Below, one piece after another: positions 4,062-41,100 of a stretch of 64,000 nt of DNA. Below the pieces are notes generated by a model. That model made no database searches. It worked only from the letters and a program-made list of their open reading frames with translations, and had not been told where the DNA came from. Each line of letters opens with the position of its first letter. Within the stretch, counting starts at the first letter, position 1. This DNA is from an uncultured Clostridium sp. (lineage in GTDB: Bacteria > Bacillota > Clostridia > TANB77 > CAG-508), in NCBI GenBank assembly GCA_945865665.1, contig CAMBEE010000005.1:17186-81185 (forward strand), given 5' to 3'. The translations under genes were made by a program, and so were the position numbers.

Positions 4062-5378
4062 TTAAGCAGTCTCTTTGCTATTTTGTGGAATATGTCTATC
4101 CTTTTTATTTTTAGGCTGTTCCTCTGTTTCTTTTCTTATAATAAGTTCAGGTGCTTTCTTTTCTAAAACTGTCTCTTTAGTTATTATACATTTTTCAATA
4201 TCTGGCGTTGATGGAACATCAAACATAATATCTCTCATTATTTCTTCGATAATTGAACGTAAGCCTCTAGCTCCTGTTTTTCTTTCAATTGCTTTATCAA
4301 CTATTGCTTCTAATGCGTCTTGTCTGAATTCTAGTTCAACATCATCCATTTCCAATAATTTTTGATATTGTTTTACCAATGCATTTTTTGGCTCTGTTGC
4401 TATTTTTATTAAGGCATCTTTATCCAAGTCTTTTAGTGTTGCAATAATTGGTAATCTTCCTATAAATTCTGGAATTAAACCATATTTCAATAAATCTTCT
4501 GGTAGCATTTCTTGGAATACTTCATATTTATTGATTTCTTTTGAACTTTCAATTTTTGTTCCAAATCCTATACTCTTTTTACCTGTTCTATCCTTAATGA
4601 TATTTTCTAGTCCTTCAAAAGCTCCTCCACAAATAAATAAGATATTTTCTGTATTTATTTGTATCATTTCTTGATTTGGATGTTTTCTTCCTCCTTGAGG
4701 TGGCACTGATGCAATCGTGCCTTCAACAATTTTTAATAATGCTTGTTGTACACCTTCACCACTAACATCTCTTGTAATTGATAAATTTTCTGATTTTCTT
4801 GTTATTTTATCAATTTCATCTATATAAACTATACCTTTTTCTGCCTTTTGGATGTCTCCATCTGCTGCTTGAATAAGTTTTAATAAGATATTTTCAACAT
4901 CTTCTCCAACATATCCAGCTTCTGTAAGGGTTGTTGCATCAGCTATTGCAAATGGTACATTTAATATTTTCGCAAGTGTTCTAGCAAGTAATGTTTTTCC
5001 ACATCCTGTTGGTCCTAAAAGCAAGATGTTGCTTTTTTGTATTTCTACATCATCTTTTTTCTCACTTTCTTCGTGAGCTATTCTTTTATAATGATTATAA
5101 ACTGCTACTGATAAAGTTTTCTTTGCTTCCTCTTGACCAATTACATAGTCATCTAAAATTTTCTTTATTTCTTTTGGACTAGGTATTTTATCTAATTCAT
5201 TTAATGTGTATCCTACTTCTTCATCTTCATAGCATTCTGCTTCAATTATGCTTGTGCACAAGTCTACACATTCGTCGCAAATATATACACCTGGTCCTGC
5301 AACTATTTTTCTTACACTATCTTGTGATTTGCCACAAAATGAACATCTTACATTTTTTGGTACATCATTTCTAGCCAT
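4062..5378 (-). CDS. clpX: ATP-dependent Clp protease ATP-binding subunit ClpX
   Basis: N-terminal zinc ribbon (CSFCGK...CDEC), Walker [12 protein letters not shown]-loop region, C-terminal conservation. Confidence 0.95.
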
Positions 5379-5465: not shown

Positions 5466-6077
5466 TTACATTCTTTTATCCATAATACCGTCAATTAAGC
5501 CATATTCTAAAGCTTCTTGTGCGGACATGTAGTGGTCCCTTTCAGTATCTTTTTCAATTTGTTCAATTGGTTGCCCTGTTTTTTCACTTAATAATTTATT
5601 TAATTTTTCTCTTGTTCTTATCATGTGGTCTGCATGAATCTTAATTTCAGTTGCTTGACCTGAAATTCCTCCACCTTGGCCACCTATTAATGGTTGATGT
5701 ATTAATATTTCAGAGTTTGGTGTTGCAAATCTTTTACCTTTTTCTCCATTTGCTAAAAGAACTGCTCCAAAGCTTGCTGCCAAACCTACACATATTGTTG
5801 TTACTGGGCATTTAATGTAATTCATTGTATCTACAATTCCCATACCATCTGTTATTGATCCTCCTGGTGAGTTTATATAAAGAAAAATTTCTTTATCTGG
5901 ATCTTCAGATTCTAAGAATAACAATTGTGCTATTACTAGACTTGCTGATGTAGGGTTTACATCTTCTCCTAAAAATATAATTCTGTCTTTTAATAATCTT
6001 GAGAATATATCGTATGATCTTTCTCCTTTACTTGTTTGTTCAACTACATAAGGTACTAAACTATCTTTTTCAAACAT
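5466..6077 (-). CDS. clpP: ATP-dependent Clp protease proteolytic subunit ClpP
   Basis: 203 aa; [16 protein letters not shown], active-site region GLAASFG. Confidence 0.95.
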
Positions 6078-35070: not shown

Positions 35071-35427
35071 TTCTTTTGTCGAATCTTGTCATTTTGTTAT
35101 TTGCTTTATTTTTCTTTTGTTTTAAATATTTCCCAAAAGCAAAAAGAATATTCATTTCTGAATATTCTTTTACATAATTTAAGTTTTTCAACCCAACTAT
35201 TGACTTTCAGCCACTATTATATCATATCACAGCTAAAACAAAAATCTCCAGTTCTTTTAAATAAGAACTGAAGATTTAATGGTGCCAACGAAGTAGTTAT
35301 CTACAACTTTTTTGGCTCTCATAACGATTGATTCAAAAATCAATCAATTTATTAAAGTATATCATATTTTCTATAAATTGCAATAAATTTCTTCAAAAAA
35401 ATTGCCACGAAATTTTGTTCTTAAGTA

Positions 35428-35456
35428 TTGATTTTTATTATTTCCTATGCTATACT
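35428..35456 (+). promoter_or_regulatory. sigma-A-type promoter for the small hydrophobic-peptide transcript
   Basis: TTGATT-17-TGcTATACT (extended -10). Confidence 0.55.
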
Positions 35457-35539
35457 GTCTAACATAGGAAATGAGAATAAACAGATGTGGTTTGCCACTT
35501 TTAATCCACAACTTATGTTGTGAGTGAGGAGGTGGTACT

Positions 35540-35650
35540 ATGATAGAAGCTGTTTTATTAGAAATAATATACTTACTTTTATTTGGTTTAGTTGTCGAAA
35601 CTATTATAGTATTTGCCTTAGTTATACTAGTTATAATTTTAAGCAAATAG
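35540..35650 (+). CDS. 36-aa hydrophobic peptide, candidate type I toxin (MIEAVLLEIIYLLLFGLVVETIIVFALVILVIILSK)
   Basis: Perfect RBS GAGGAGG 8 nt upstream; a single TM helix. Not in the track because it is under 60 aa. Confidence 0.4.
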   Translation: MIEAVLLEIIYLLLFGLVVETIIVFALVILVIILSK

Positions 35651-35654
35651 ACAA

Positions 35655-35698
35655 TAAAAAAACACATCTGTAATTTGACCGTTGTAGATGTGTTTTTA
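35655..35698. terminator. bidirectional rho-independent terminator shared by the convergent peptide mRNA and an antisense RNA
   Basis: A7-ACACATCT-loop16-AGATGTGT-T5. Confidence 0.7.
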
Positions 35699-35746
35699 CA
35701 TATTTTATCGGCAAACCACGTTTGTGGCTCTTCATTTCCTATATTT

Positions 35747-35775
35747 ATTATACAAAGATTTTATTGTTTTGTCAA
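35747..35775 (-). promoter_or_regulatory. consensus sigma-A promoter driving a ~75-nt antisense RNA toward the shared terminator
   Basis: Minus strand TTGACA-17-TATAAT, a perfect consensus. Confidence 0.55.
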
Positions 35776-35908
35776 TTGTTTTAAAAAGTTTTTCTAAATT
35801 GCTTCAATTGGTGATATTCCCAAATTGAGATGTTTATCATTTTAAACAAGAAATCGAAGTGAGCAAGATTATCTTGCCCACTTCTTCAATATTCAGTTGT
35901 AATGTCGT

Positions 35909-36391
35909 TTAGAAGATATCGCCCATATCGCCCATATAAGCATCCACTCCATTTTCAATAAGAGCCATATTAAGATTCCAGCCATCATCAACAATCTTAT
36001 TGTATCTTGCCAGAATTTCATCAGGACTCATCGTTGTATCTTCTTTGATGGTTGCTTTAGCATATCCTTCAGCTTTTCCGAAAGTAAAGAAACCTCTGAA
36101 CATAGGACTAAATGCAGTCCAACAGCCATCTCTTTCCAAATTCGGAAAGCAATAAAGAAGAGGTGAAAGCTCACGTTCTGTGGACATCTTCAGATATACC
36201 AGGTTATTGTTGGACTCATCATATTTGCCATGAATGTATCTTTCAGAATCATAGCGAGATGAATACTGTTCCTCCATATACCCCTTAATCTGCCCAGACT
36301 CTTCAAGTACAAAGTACCCCTTAAAGTCCGCGGGTAATTCGCTATACCGACCATTTTGCTGGAACTTCCCCTCAATGCTGAATACTTTCAT
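35909..36391 (-). CDS. hypothetical protein (160 aa), horizontally acquired cargo
   Basis: About 40% GC against a ~27% background; own promoter TTGAAA-17-TGgTATGAT and RBS GGAGG; no recognisable motif. Confidence 0.5.
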   Translation of the reverse strand: MKVFSIEGKFQQNGRYSELPADFKGYFVLEESGQIKGYMEEQYSSRYDSERYIHGKYDESNNNLVYLKMSTERELSPLLYCFPNLERDGCWTAFSPMFRGFFTFGKAEGYAKATIKEDTTMSPDEILARYNKIVDDGWNLNMALIENGVDAYMGDMGDIF

Positions 36392-36525
36392 ATTGTTTCC
36401 TCCTTACAATTGTAATATGGGATTTTACAACTTGCTATTTTTGTTTATTTCGCATAGCTACGAATATTTTACTTTAATATCATACCATATTTTACATAAA
36501 ATTTCAACTGAATTTCTCAAATTTA

Positions 36526-36831
36526 TTATGCCTTATAATTTACACTATTAAATAAATACAAAGCAACCTTATTTCTTTCAGTTTCAGTCATTTCCATAAT
36601 CTTAGCCATTGTAGACATTACAAGTTGATATTTTGCAAAATTTATTAAAGTAGTTCTATATTCTTCATCACCTTCTTTTAGCATAGTATCAAATTTCTCA
36701 TACATTTCAGTTTTATTGTATAAAATATTAGCCCAATCGCTTGTAGATAAACATATTCCAAGTATTAATTTATCTTTTATATCCATATCTTTAATTATAT
36801 TTATTACATTTTCAACTTTATTTTCTTCCAT
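36526..36831 (-). CDS. hypothetical protein (101 aa)
   Basis: Open ORF immediately downstream of the relaxase on the same strand. Confidence 0.4.
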   Translation of the reverse strand: MEENKVENVINIIKDMDIKDKLILGICLSTSDWANILYNKTEMYEKFDTMLKEGDEEYRTTLINFAKYQLVMSTMAKIMEMTETERNKVALYLFNSVNYKA

Positions 36832-36844
36832 AAATTTAGCTCCT

Positions 36845-38230
36845 TTACTTTAATTCCATATTATTTTTCTTTTTATTCTTATCAATTATTTCTTCTTTAG
36901 GTTTTACTTTTCTATAAATATTATTTGCAATTTCATTTTCATCATCAGTAAATATACCATTTTTATATAAATCATCACTAACAATTTTATAGTTCTCATT
37001 TTTATCAAAACAAATTCTTTTATGAAAATGTCCCATAATACTATGCCAAAAGTCTTTGAATTTCTGTAATTCTTGTTTTAATTTTTCTTTTTCAGCTTGT
37101 AGTCTATTTACAACCTTGTCTTTAGTTGTTAGTTTGCTTTTCAAGTTATCTATTTCATCTTCTTTTAGCTCTAATTGATATTTAAGTGAATGATTTTCTT
37201 TCGCTATTTTAAAAGAACTATACTCAAAATCTTTAATAGCCATATTTAAGTCATTTACACTTCTAATAGTTTTAGTGGTATCTTTTACATCTTTTGTAAA
37301 ACTTTTGATTTTTTCAATATCTTCGTTTGAAATAACCTTATTATTTTTATTAAATGGGGTAGGTTTTAAATTATCTAATATTGTACTTATATCTTTACTC
37401 GTATTATCAAGTTTTTTAGTTTGGCTATTAGCTTCAGCAAGTTTTTTCTCTTTCTTTTCCAGTTGCTTTTTTATATTTCTATAATTTCCCATATCATTAA
37501 CATTTATGTCTTGATTTCTGCCTTTTTGCTTTTCTTTTAATTTAAATTCTATATCATAGAACTTGTTAAAAGACTTAATACAAGCATTTCTCATTTTATC
37601 TTGAATTGCAGTTAATGACTCTTTTGTAAAAAGTTTTGTTTTACCAACTTGTTTTTTCATGCCTCTAGGAGAGTTCTCTATTATAGGTACTCCAACAATG
37701 TGCATGTGGGGAGAGGTTTCATCAAAATGAATTGTTGCATTTGCTATTTTAAAAGTTGGCACAATTTTAGCTAATTCCTTAACTTGTTCATTATACACAT
37801 CAATCATTTTTATTCTATATTCTTGCTCTTTACCGTTCCAAAAATCCATATCTCCAAGCTCTATTATAATTTCACAGGCTATATCATTTTGTGAGTCACA
37901 CACTTTTTCAAAATAGTTGTCTATTTTTCTATCATCTCTAGTCTGTTTATTATTATATTCAATACGAGCTTCTTCAAATTCTTGTAAATATAAATCTTGC
38001 ACATCATTTACAATATTATCTGTACCATAAATAACTCTAATCAAATCTCTTTGATTATCATAATCTCTTAAGTTGTGTTTATTAACTCTTGATAAATCAT
38101 TTGCATTTTGAATTGCATTATTTGATAGAGAAGTAGTACCAGATACATTTTCTTTAGAAACTTTCTTTGCTAATTTACTTTTATTCTTATCACTACCTAA
38201 ATGAAAAGAATATGCTAATTCTTGCTCCAA
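36845..38230 (-). CDS. plasmid recombination/mobilization relaxase, MobV (Mob_Pre) family
   Basis: N-terminal LAYSFHLG (catalytic Tyr), KHNLRD, and the HxDE..PHxH box (IHFDETSPHMHIV); long coiled-coil C-terminus. Likely TTG start after RBS AAGGAGGTG inside the track ORF. Confidence 0.8.
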   Translation of the reverse strand: MEQELAYSFHLGSDKNKSKLAKKVSKENVSGTTSLSNNAIQNANDLSRVNKHNLRDYDNQRDLIRVIYGTDNIVNDVQDLYLQEFEEARIEYNNKQTRDDRKIDNYFEKVCDSQNDIACEIIIELGDMDFWNGKEQEYRIKMIDVYNEQVKELAKIVPTFKIANATIHFDETSPHMHIVGVPIIENSPRGMKKQVGKTKLFTKESLTAIQDKMRNACIKSFNKFYDIEFKLKEKQKGRNQDINVNDMGNYRNIKKQLEKKEKKLAEANSQTKKLDNTSKDISTILDNLKPTPFNKNNKVISNEDIEKIKSFTKDVKDTTKTIRSVNDLNMAIKDFEYSSFKIAKENHSLKYQLELKEDEIDNLKSKLTTKDKVVNRLQAEKEKLKQELQKFKDFWHSIMGHFHKRICFDKNENYKIVSDDLYKNGIFTDDENEIANNIYRKVKPKEEIIDKNKKKNNMELK

Positions 38231-38428
38231 TGAAAACACCTCCTTGAAATTTCTTCGAAGCACAGGACTTTGACCTTGTCATAAGTCCTAACCCCCTATA
38301 TGTTATGACATACTATCATAACATGGGGGCTCTGCGAGGCAATAAAATTTATTTTTTGCAAATAAATTTTATTCAAATTAACTATCGCCACTTTCATTTT
38401 TGTTATCACAAAAACAAAACGTGCCACG

Positions 38429-40352
<1,924 letters not shown>

Positions 40353-40582
40353 TTTCAATTTGCATAACCTCCTAACTTCAAAAAAAGAGACATCAAAGTA
40401 CACACGAGTACTAATGACATCTCTTAAATCCGTTTATCACAAAATAAAATACAATATAATTGTAATATAATATAATTTTTTCAAAGTACTCGTAAATCTA
40501 TATTTGCTATTGCCCAAGAAAATATAGATAATTAATTGCCTATATTATATCACGATTTAAAGAAATGTCAATTTTTTACAAA

Positions 40583-40864
40583 TTATATTTTTTTCAAATA
40601 TTCTTCTAACTCTGATAATTTAATCTTTTTAGTCAAATTTGAAATATACACATCATTTGAATAATTAAAAACTAAAAAAGTAATATTTTTAATAATCACT
40701 CTATGTGGTTCAATGTATGTAAGATTAGTTTTCTCTAATTTTCTAACACTACCATTGATAAAAGTAGGATTAACTTTAGAAAACTCACATATAAATTCAA
40801 GTCGTTGTTTTAGACATTCCTCAAATTCTAATTCTTGCTTAATTATCTTCATTTCAAACACCAT
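40583..40864 (-). CDS. hypothetical protein (93 aa) upstream of the recombinase
   Basis: Open ORF with no recognised motif. Confidence 0.4.
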   Translation of the reverse strand: MVFEMKIIKQELEFEECLKQRLEFICEFSKVNPTFINGSVRKLEKTNLTYIEPHRVIIKNITFLVFNYSNDVYISNLTKKIKLSELEEYLKKI

Positions 40865-40974
40865 CCTTTCATTGTAATTTTAGGATGATTTTTTCGCAAA
40901 AGAAAAAAATCAACCATTTCTGATTGATTTTTGTATCTATCTGTTCTATAAAAAAGTTCGAACAGAAACGTCAT

Positions 40975-41062
40975 TGGTGCAGATGGCCGGAATCGAACCG
41001 GCACGGTTTATTCAACCGCAGGATTTTAAGTCCTGTGCGTCTACCAGTTCCGCCACATCTGC
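40975..41062 (-). tRNA. tRNA-Leu (anticodon UAA)
   Basis: Cloverleaf read by hand: 7-bp acceptor GCAGATG/CATCTGC, anticodon loop CTTAAAA, long variable arm, T-arm GGTTCGATTCC, encoded CCA. Confidence 0.9.
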
Positions 41063-41100
41063 ATTTAATATTTGAACTGGCTGTCCTAACGACAATTGAT

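Follow-up and report, generated by a model that had tools for sequence, protein, structure and literature searches.

The subject of this analysis is a cassette of approximately 350 bp, located at positions 35428 to 35776 of a 64,000-nucleotide (nt) stretch of DNA (here termed the window) from an uncultured Clostridium sp. (GenBank assembly GCA_945865665.1, contig CAMBEE010000005.1, positions 17,186 to 81,185 of the forward strand), which an initial annotation made from the letters of the sequence had proposed to be a compact, convergent small-peptide/antisense-RNA locus of the type I toxin-antitoxin kind. On the plus strand, the module harbors a promoter (TTGATT-17-TGcTATACT; 35428-35456), a leader of approximately 78 nt containing a short hairpin, a Shine-Dalgarno (SD) sequence (GGAGG; 35528-35532) positioned 7 nt before the ATG at 35540, and an open reading frame (ORF; 35540-35650) which encodes the 36-amino-acid (aa) hydrophobic peptide MIEAVLLEIIYLLLFGLVVETIIVFALVILVIILSK, a putative toxin. 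The ORF is followed by a hairpin (35663-35692) which is bordered by an A-run (A7; 35656-35662) and a T-run (T5; 35693-35697), while the minus strand carries a TTGACA-17-TATAAT promoter (35747-35776, hexamers 35775-35747). Both promoters, the leader hairpin, the SD sequence, the ORF, and the A-run/hairpin/T-run had been named in the initial annotation, and all are present in the sequence.

The distribution of the module was assessed across a one-genome-per-species collection by means of a degenerate DNA pattern, which retrieved 71 loci from approximately 70 species-level genomes and which, because it fixes the first 11 codons of the peptide ORF, leaves more divergent relatives outside this count. 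All 71 loci (individually designated by L numbers) reside in uncultured low-GC Clostridia, such as Clostridium sp. CAG:440 and CAG:567, originating from human, rabbit, goat, and other guts. Alignment-based conservation was evaluated in 62 distinct copies, coding and folding tests were applied to 59 loci, and the antisense promoter was scored in 61. In the alignment, conservation collapses beyond both edges of the module, and the flanking sequences sort into approximately 40 to 50 clusters, the sampled neighbors being mostly housekeeping genes (dxs, cmk, folD, and a methyltransferase gene) and occasionally a Mob_Pre or Fic gene. An identical 36-aa peptide is called on 17 public contigs representing at least four unrelated neighborhoods, across which DNA homology is limited to approximately 35461/35493 to 35776 and always stops at the minus-strand -35 hexamer. 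The initial annotation had assigned the locus to the left end of the mobile element; this is correct for the window, where a 5.8-kb element (35275-41072), which encodes a relaxase of the MobV type together with a large serine recombinase, has the module approximately 150 bp in from its left edge (35275), but it is not a general property, as most copies are found between housekeeping genes. Three metagenome-assembled genomes (MAGs) each carry two module loci on different contigs (L035/L048, L038/L062, and L034/L078), indicating that the module can be multicopy within one genome; no second copy is present within the window. Comparison of the module by blastn returned no match among plasmids and, among phages, just a 60-nt AT-rich chance match, and two DNA patterns of the module yielded no matches in viral contigs.

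A short and sharply bounded unit with an inverted-repeat architecture (detailed below), dispersed over many intergenic sites, might also be explained as a miniature inverted-repeat transposable element or comparable selfish repeat, in which the inverted repeat would be kept by the binding of one transposase to both ends, with no functional role for the promoter-like hexamers and the ORF. Such an origin is considered highly improbable, given that the repeats are internal, being flanked on each side by approximately 35 bp more of conserved sequence which reaches the -35 hexamers, and that neither a target-site duplication nor a terminal inverted repeat was apparent at the module edges above the non-cognate flank control (direct matches of 5.8 nt in cognate versus 5.7 nt in non-cognate flanks; inverted matches of 5.7 versus 5.6 nt). 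The G.U-type variation observed within the repeats is also at variance with this explanation, as it indicates RNA pairing and not DNA recognition, and so is the manner in which the ORF has evolved.

The ORF is, as judged from its pattern of variation, under coding selection. The 36-codon frame is kept in 52 of the 59 aligned copies, and ORF indels are almost all in-frame, the exceptions being one 1-nt gap and one 4-nt gap, the latter carried by L026 and resulting in a truncated 25-aa product. Differences from the consensus number 94, 37, and 97 at the first, second, and third codon positions, respectively, the second position thus being the most constrained, and the synonymous fraction is 0.37 compared with an expected 0.24; the in-frame indels and the constraint on codon position 2 speak against a transposable repeat with an incidental ORF. 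Synonymous sites have diverged by 7.5%, compared with 25 to 27% in the unstructured spacers of the module, and this stronger conservation points to an additional constraint on the coding region at the level of the RNA.

Apolar residues account for 30 of the 36 positions of the peptide, the polar residues being E3, E8, E20, T21, S35, and K36, and the product would be a single-helix membrane peptide and putative toxin. The initial annotation had advised a search with small-protein profile models; searches of Pfam and NCBIfam (E <= 1) and of PHROG assigned the peptide to no family, and an exhaustive HMMER scan of 1.84 billion representatives detected only close relatives, namely, 27 clusters which are all at least 69% identical, with no similarity beyond these. 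Neither was a match obtained by tblastn against phage and plasmid records, a search in which the active low-complexity filter may blunt the test, and no name for the peptide was found in public sources. A faint FG-L..(E/N)T resemblance to the toxin BsrG may be present. The longer members of the family represent gene-caller read-through of the leader or tail: many of the public gene calls (P0001-P0027) extend the peptide N-terminally through the leader (‘MWFATFNPQL...’) or C-terminally via a lost stop codon, which renders automated annotation of this family unreliable. Fusion of the peptide to a conserved upstream ORF (‘MWFATFN...’) was considered and dismissed, as the frame of this ORF relative to that of the peptide shifts with the length of the hairpin loop and does not agree with it in the window.

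The two promoters differ in strength, as far as agreement with the consensus is indicative. In the sense promoter, with its -35 hexamer at 35428-35433 and TGcTATACT at 35448-35456, 9 of 12 positions agree with the consensus in addition to the TG extension; the TTG and TATACT elements are conserved in the 62 copies, the spacer is not, and the mean score is 8.6 of 12. The -10 element precedes an ATAGG motif by 7 nt in 39 loci. An A/T block of weaker conservation than the module proper, AAATTTTGTT (35409-35419, plus strand; conservation 0.7 to 0.9 in the 62 loci), which recurs in the flanks compared in the search for duplications, is situated approximately 10 to 20 nt upstream of the sense -35 hexamer and may, from its location, possibly represent an UP element, which would occupy positions -59 to -38 relative to the promoter and could compensate for the weak -35 hexamer. 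The antisense promoter agrees with the consensus at all 12 positions and is the best promoter match in the scanned region; its ATTATA and (T/A)GTCAA blocks are conserved, the spacer is not, and a score of at least 11 of 12 is reached in 32 of 61 loci. By consensus score, the antisense promoter is therefore the stronger of the two.

The leader contains a stem-loop (35494-35536) composed of an anti-SD segment, GCCACUUUU (35494-35502), the hairpin CACAAC-TTAT-GTTGTG (35507-35522), and the SD region, GGAGGUGGU (35528-35536). Five of the six base pairs of the hairpin display compensatory changes, and at least five versions of the stem are encountered (CACAAC/GTTGTG, CGTAAC/GTTACG, AAAGG/CCTTT, CACGT/ACGTG, and CACAGT/ACTGTG). 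According to RNAalifold, the invariant GCCACUUU pairs with GGAGGUGGU in a helix which is capped by this hairpin, and the AUG is paired into the ORF. Conserved promoters, coding selection, and a covarying stem-loop which sequesters the SD sequence thus support the proposal that this is a compact convergent peptide-mRNA/antisense module of the type I kind. The idea that the 3′ tail might pair, by CUCCAUU, with the SD sequence was discarded on inspection of the alignment, in which the variants do not compensate.

A set of inverted repeats links the leader to the region beyond the hairpin. The initial annotation had reported two such repeats, the first of which, GTGGTTTGCC (35487-35496)/GGCAAACCAC (35710-35719), is exact; the second, given as AGGAAATGAG/CTCATTTCCT, should instead read ATAGGAAATGA (35464-35474)/TCATTTCCTAT (35732-35742), the right copy reading CTTCATTTCCT. 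The equal spacing of 12 nt on both sides indicates that the two are parts of one interrupted inverted repeat of approximately 33 nt. A third common motif, (A/G)CAGATGTG, is found in the leader (35481-35489) and, as its reverse complement, in the left arm of the hairpin (35663-35671), which is invariant. In a plus-strand RNA, these repeats would form two long-range helices, designated P1 and P2. The 5′ arm of P1, AUAGGAAAUGAG (35464-35475), constitutes the extreme 5′ end of the predicted mRNA, of which it would bury nt 3 to 14, and pairs with UUCAUUUCCUAU (35731-35742); the 5′ arm of P2, ACAGAUGUGGUUUGCC (35481-35496), pairs with GGCAAACCACGUUUGU (35710-35725), its segment 35481-35489 alternatively pairing with the left arm of the hairpin in the RNAalifold output. 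The two 3′ arms (35710-35742) are encoded by the same DNA that specifies the 5′ third of the antisense RNA.

Both helices are supported by covariation. In P1, 92.9% of alignment cells are paired and five pairs have changed on both sides; in the 10-bp core of P2, the corresponding values are 94% and four pairs, and inspection of the alignment attributes the unpaired P2 cells mostly to gap misplacement. Matched changes include GTGGTTGCC, from which one T is missing, in both arms of L031, L045, L067, and L069, among others, as well as GTGCTACC in both arms of L076 and ACAGAAAATG in both arms of L046, with more in L067, L056, and L031/L037. None of 500 shuffles reached the observed score or percentage of pairing for the structure as a whole, and slid controls were 40 to 53% paired versus 84.5% observed. 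When applied unguided, RNAalifold recovers P1 (13 bp with one bulge) and the anti-SD helix; P1 is also found in the single-sequence minimum-free-energy fold, which lengthens P2 to 16 bp by a 6-bp extension with three G.U pairs that can form on the plus strand only.

The nature of the mismatches and the folding energies assign this structure to the plus strand. G.U-type mismatches exceed those of the A.C type in both helices (7 versus 0 in P2; approximately 16 to 18 versus approximately 9 in P1), and the arm-arm duplex has a mean energy of -43.1 kcal/mol on the plus strand versus -32.2 kcal/mol on the minus strand, being better on the plus strand in all 59 loci (shuffled, -13.6 kcal/mol). The cognate arm outperforms the non-cognate mean in 51 of 59 loci, as exemplified by L067 (-47 versus -23 to -36 kcal/mol) and L076 (-38 versus -20 to -30 kcal/mol). 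The full-length plus-strand RNA folds at -88.2 kcal/mol (z = -7.8), the reverse strand at -68.4 kcal/mol, and the full-length form is approximately 31 kcal/mol more stable than the terminated one. Covariation, strand bias, and cognate fit together lead us to propose that both arms belong to one plus-strand RNA folded 5′ on 3′. The antisense RNA, being transcribed from the DNA of the 3′ arms, then necessarily resembles the leader. The identical segments shared by the two transcripts, which the initial annotation had correctly noted and had considered unexpected, are therefore to be expected if the plus-strand RNA passes the hairpin and folds in this manner.

The A-run/hairpin/T-run (35656-35697, both strands), which is the region of perfect sense-antisense overlap, had been described as a bidirectional terminator. 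Its elements are indeed conserved, with a mean A-run of 6.4 and a mean T-run of 6.0 nt, and per-sequence folding of the 59 loci revealed a weak hairpin, with mean energies of -7.0 kcal/mol on the plus strand versus -4.8 kcal/mol on the minus strand, the plus-strand form being the more stable in 50. The left arm of the hairpin is invariant, while the right arm toggles between GAUGUG and GGUGUG, an exchange which yields U-A or U.G on the plus strand and an A.C mismatch on the minus strand; in the loop, a conserved 5′ half reads UAA(C/U)UUG and includes a YUNR-type motif. The presence of covarying 3′ arms downstream of the hairpin, however, implies that plus-strand RNA reads through it. The structure therefore probably terminates the antisense RNA but forms an internal hairpin in the mRNA, where it may act as a partial terminator, instead of being the obligatory end of both transcripts. 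No conserved hairpin or terminator was found in the alignment after 35742, where there is just a U-rich tract, TTTTATTATAC, which corresponds to the antisense -10 element.

A stricter analogy with the par (Fst/RNA II) system would have both RNAs end at this common terminator and overlap by approximately 44 nt, their interaction proceeding from kissing loops to a duplex, with the repeat kept for a common factor, an RNase, or an effect of the initially transcribed region. Convergent promoters, the A-run, hairpin, and T-run conserved on both sides, the YUNR-like loop motif, and a leader stem-loop which hides the SD sequence as in par RNA I are all in keeping with such a scheme. It is nonetheless deemed unlikely, since a need for identical sequences would favor no particular type of mismatch, yet G.U on the plus strand is in excess; furthermore, the 6-bp extension of P2 pairs on the plus strand only and the arm duplexes are better on that strand by approximately 11 kcal/mol in 59 of 59 loci. 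The module also encodes no protein which could coevolve with a binding site, and par employs direct repeats, by which the RNA 5′ regions become complementary, whereas the repeats described here are inverted.

The predicted mRNA measures approximately 237 to 284 nt. The predicted antisense RNA, a putative antitoxin, would extend on the minus strand from approximately 35741, as placed by the promoter, to the U-run at approximately 35650-35656, as placed by the hairpin and U7, and would therefore be approximately 85 to 90 nt in length instead of the approximately 75 nt initially suggested. It folds at -21.3 kcal/mol (z = -2.9). A search of the module against Rfam at a permissive threshold produced just sub-threshold noise (OrzO-P, E = 0.63). 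Two further candidate features were rejected, namely, a small ORF on the antisense RNA, which is not conserved, and an internal plus-strand promoter in the hairpin loop (TTGACC-18-CATATT), from which a separate 3′-arm RNA would originate and whose -10 element is not conserved in approximately one-sixth of the loci.

The consequences of 5′-on-3′ folding for translation were modeled by calculating the mean probability that the SD sequence is unpaired in the 59 loci, which rose from 0.06 for the terminated mRNA to 0.18 for the closed full-length form and stood at 0.08 when the tail was blocked so as to mimic bound antisense RNA. In the closed full-length RNA, P2 takes up the GCC of the anti-SD segment. 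The direction of the shift is alike in most loci, and in this thermodynamic model the effect is small.

From these data, the following sequence of events is proposed. The weak sigma-A-type sense promoter would give rise to a structured RNA of approximately 280 nt encoding the membrane peptide, in which the leader stem-loop, forming cotranscriptionally, would pair GCCACUUU with the SD sequence and so keep the nascent mRNA poorly translatable. Read-through of the modest A7-hairpin-T5 structure would add a tail of approximately 45 nt, the two blocks of which would pair with the first approximately 35 nt as P1 and P2; the RNA would thereby be closed 5′ on 3′, with both of its ends buried and the anti-SD segment partly pulled off the SD sequence. 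The stronger convergent promoter would meanwhile produce the antisense RNA, perfectly complementary to the tail and hairpin, which may dock via the complementary hairpin loops and then invade P1 and P2. Expulsion of the leader would allow the SD helix to re-form fully, and the resulting duplex of approximately 90 bp would be open to cleavage by RNase III. Within this scheme, the structures and their conservation are comparative results, whereas read-through, displacement, the role of RNase III, the toxicity of the peptide, and the transcript ends are steps which we infer.

On balance, the module is probably of a type I toxin-antitoxin-like kind, constituting a new sequence family whose architecture is a variant of that found in the 3′-overlapping Gram-positive type I systems. 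T1TAdb defines type I systems by a short mRNA of 150 to 400 nt specifying a hydrophobic protein of 20 to 60 aa, together with an antisense RNA encoded in cis or nearby; the module combines a predicted mRNA and a hydrophobic peptide within these ranges with a predicted antisense gene, and would on sequence grounds classify as type I-like. A different possibility is that no addiction or toxin function is involved and that the ORF encodes an ordinary small membrane protein, such as a transporter regulator or stress peptide, which is tuned by a cis-antisense RNA. The location of many copies between housekeeping genes, the lack of a charged tail, and the failure to match any defense or toxin-antitoxin family would accord with this view, which we nevertheless regard as quite improbable: the cassette is sharply bounded and recurs in some 40 to 50 unrelated contexts, mobile elements included, as well as at two loci in each of three MAGs; no conserved partner gene was found near the module among the contexts compared; and control is layered in the pattern of known type I toxins, through burial of the SD sequence and AUG, 5′-on-3′ closure of the mRNA, and a stronger antisense promoter which converges on the gene.

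Several points weigh against the proposed type I-like mechanism. In the model, SD accessibility changes little (0.06 to 0.18), the SD sequence remaining mostly paired in every state. The A-run/hairpin/T-run also resembles a plus-strand terminator and, if it were an efficient one, most of the mRNA would lack the tail; the tail, in turn, is devoid of a conserved terminator, and the U-rich tract which follows it doubles as the antisense -10 element. Both transcript ends are placed from the positions of promoters and hairpin. The covariation counts do not represent independent events, because the loci are related by descent or transfer. Lastly, the peptide is net acidic and is without the cationic or charged tail that is common among type I toxins.

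A more specific version of the type I-like mechanism can be put forward tentatively, its probability being judged to be less than even: the module may represent a widespread new type I family of uncultured low-GC gut Clostridia whose antitoxin RNA acts as a trans-acting twin of the leader, the two competing for the 3′ tail, such that strand exchange would switch a ribosome-binding site approximately 200 nt away. The 5′-3′ helix and the U-rich tract may, in this version, jointly act as a long-range terminator in which the antisense -10 element is contained.

The element which hosts the module in the window was delimited by homology with a copy at another chromosomal site in other metagenomes (L001, L011-L019), with which it shares 99.9% identity over the first 2.7 kb and approximately 92.7% overall. 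It is a small integrative mobilizable element in which the module is followed by a 160-aa ORF, a 101-aa ORF, MobV/Mob_Pre, the large serine recombinase gene, a 93-aa ORF, and tRNA-Leu. The 160-aa (35909-36391) and 101-aa (36526-36831) ORFs, both on the minus strand, had no significant match in Pfam, NCBIfam, or PHROG; the 160-aa protein is indexed in 959 blocks of a public collection and is, therefore, very common in gut metagenomes. A strong, GC-rich, bidirectional-looking hairpin at 35856-35884, which lies outside the conserved module, ends the 160-aa gene and gives a sub-threshold Rfam match to DapZ (E = 0.005; 29 bits versus a gathering score of 56). The recombinase gene (40250-40350, minus strand) is frameshifted just past the catalytic-serine motif, with YMRVSTEDQ in one frame and GFSLSEQ... 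in another; the intact recombinase in L001 comprises 642 aa, compared with a 545-aa ORF in the window, and the frameshift may reflect an immobilized element or an assembly error. The tRNA-Leu(taa) gene (40975-41062, minus strand) ends 10 bp inside the right homology limit (41072) and may either have served as the target of integration or travel with the element. Two segments near the element ends (35290-35353 and 40583-40631) recur as extra copies beyond the left end of the element in L001 (at 5043-5107 and 5620-5668) and L012, with 89 to 92% identity, and these may be attachment-site remnants or the trace of an earlier insertion.

A truncated class of modules was also observed, comprising L003, L006, L007, L008, and L010, in which approximately 170 nt upstream of the peptide start are affected (in L003, for example, 2150-2313). 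In these copies, the sequence to the left of window position 35493, including the sense promoter, P1, and most of the P2 5′ arm, has given way to a fragment sharing 71% identity with the element's 101-aa gene (window positions 36537-36706), while the ORF, hairpin region, 3′ arms, and antisense promoter are retained. In L003, the right arm of the hairpin has, by eye, also diverged. Such copies may be disarmed, with the antisense gene alone still active.

Among the known systems to which the locus had been likened at the outset (Fst/RNAII, TxpA/RatA, and BsrG/SR4), it is the RNA logic of bsrG/SR4 that is shared, and the module is not a member of the Fst/par family, on account of both its inverted repeats and its peptide. 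In par of the Enterococcus faecalis plasmid pAD1, the direct repeats DRa and DRb endow the two RNAs with complementary 5′ regions, and the antitoxin covers the start site (PMC7472228), whereas in the module the repeats are inverted and the 5′ regions are consequently alike. The peptide also departs from the Fst signature, which consists of PXXXG(C), a conserved Trp, and a charged C-terminal tail, in that it contains neither Pro nor Trp and ends in -ILSK. Common to both are convergent promoters approximately 300 bp apart, a hairpin between A- and T-runs, a YUNR-like loop, a 5′ stem-loop which hides the SD sequence, a helix which buries the 5′ end of the mRNA (although in the module the partner of P1 lies beyond the hairpin), and an occurrence on mobile elements and in core genomes (PMC7472228).

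Closure of a toxin mRNA upon itself is also a feature of more distant systems. The aapA1 toxin mRNA, which is controlled by IsoA1, is likewise locked by long-distance pairing between its 5′ and 3′ regions. In hok mRNA, the 5′ and 3′ ends pair, and sequestration of the SD sequence uncouples translation from transcription (PMC3834814). Both hok/sok and aapA1/IsoA1 belong to Gram-negative families with unrelated sequences, and their antisense RNAs target the 5′ or initiation region, for which the lock must first be opened by 3′ processing, whereas in the module it is the lock's own 3′ arm to which the predicted antisense RNA is complementary.

The type I systems of Clostridioides difficile (CD2517.1-RCd8, CD0956.2-RCd10, and others like them) resemble the module in being clostridial, in the convergent and overlapping arrangement of their genes, and in their link to mobile elements (PMC6563280), an association which also forms the title of a further report (PMC7699646). 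Their toxins are 50 to 53 aa in length (range, 30 to 56 aa) with a hydrophobic N terminus and a lysine-rich C terminus (PMC6563280), in contrast to the 36-aa, net acidic peptide of the module, which ends in -LSK with a single terminal Lys. Apart from those of C. difficile, hardly any type I toxins of Clostridia have emerged from systematic searches (PMC6563280), and the module would add a family present in approximately 70 species-level genomes of abundant, uncultured gut Clostridia. It may also serve as a practical marker of, and a candidate stabilizing cassette for, small integrative mobilizable elements in these organisms.

The closest parallel is provided by bsrG/SR4 of Bacillus subtilis, in which nt 1 to 35 of the bsrG mRNA pair with nt 232 to 262 in a long helix (PMC3834814). 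Binding of SR4 to the 3′ arm renders nt 1 to 33 of bsrG single stranded and extends the SD helix from 4 to 8 bp, the SR4 promoter being the stronger of the two (PMC3834814). The module and bsrG/SR4 have in common a hydrophobic (putative) toxin of similar size (36 versus 38 aa), a structured mRNA (approximately 290 nt for bsrG), a helix between the first approximately 35 nt and a 3′ segment, an antisense RNA complementary to the 3′ part of the mRNA including that arm, an SD sequence held in a short leader helix (which in bsrG is, and in the module would be, reinforced once the 5′ arm is freed), and an antitoxin promoter which exceeds that of the toxin in strength. They differ in that no sequence similarity of peptide or RNAs was detected (Pfam, NCBIfam, PHROG, and Rfam), in their hosts, the module being confined among the loci retrieved to uncultured gut Clostridia, and in the length of the antisense RNA, which is approximately 90 nt in the module and hardly enters the ORF, compared with approximately 180 nt for SR4. 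Moreover, the 3′ arm of bsrG is followed by the terminator of its own mRNA, whereas the 3′ arms of the module lie past a hairpin which is common to the antisense RNA and are followed by a U-rich tract. Remodeling of a distant ribosome-binding site by an antisense RNA which binds the 3′ region has so far been shown for bsrG/SR4, and the module, in which two promoters, a frame under coding selection, and three covarying RNA helices yield an unusually clean comparative signal within 350 bp, could offer a natural test case for this mode of control.

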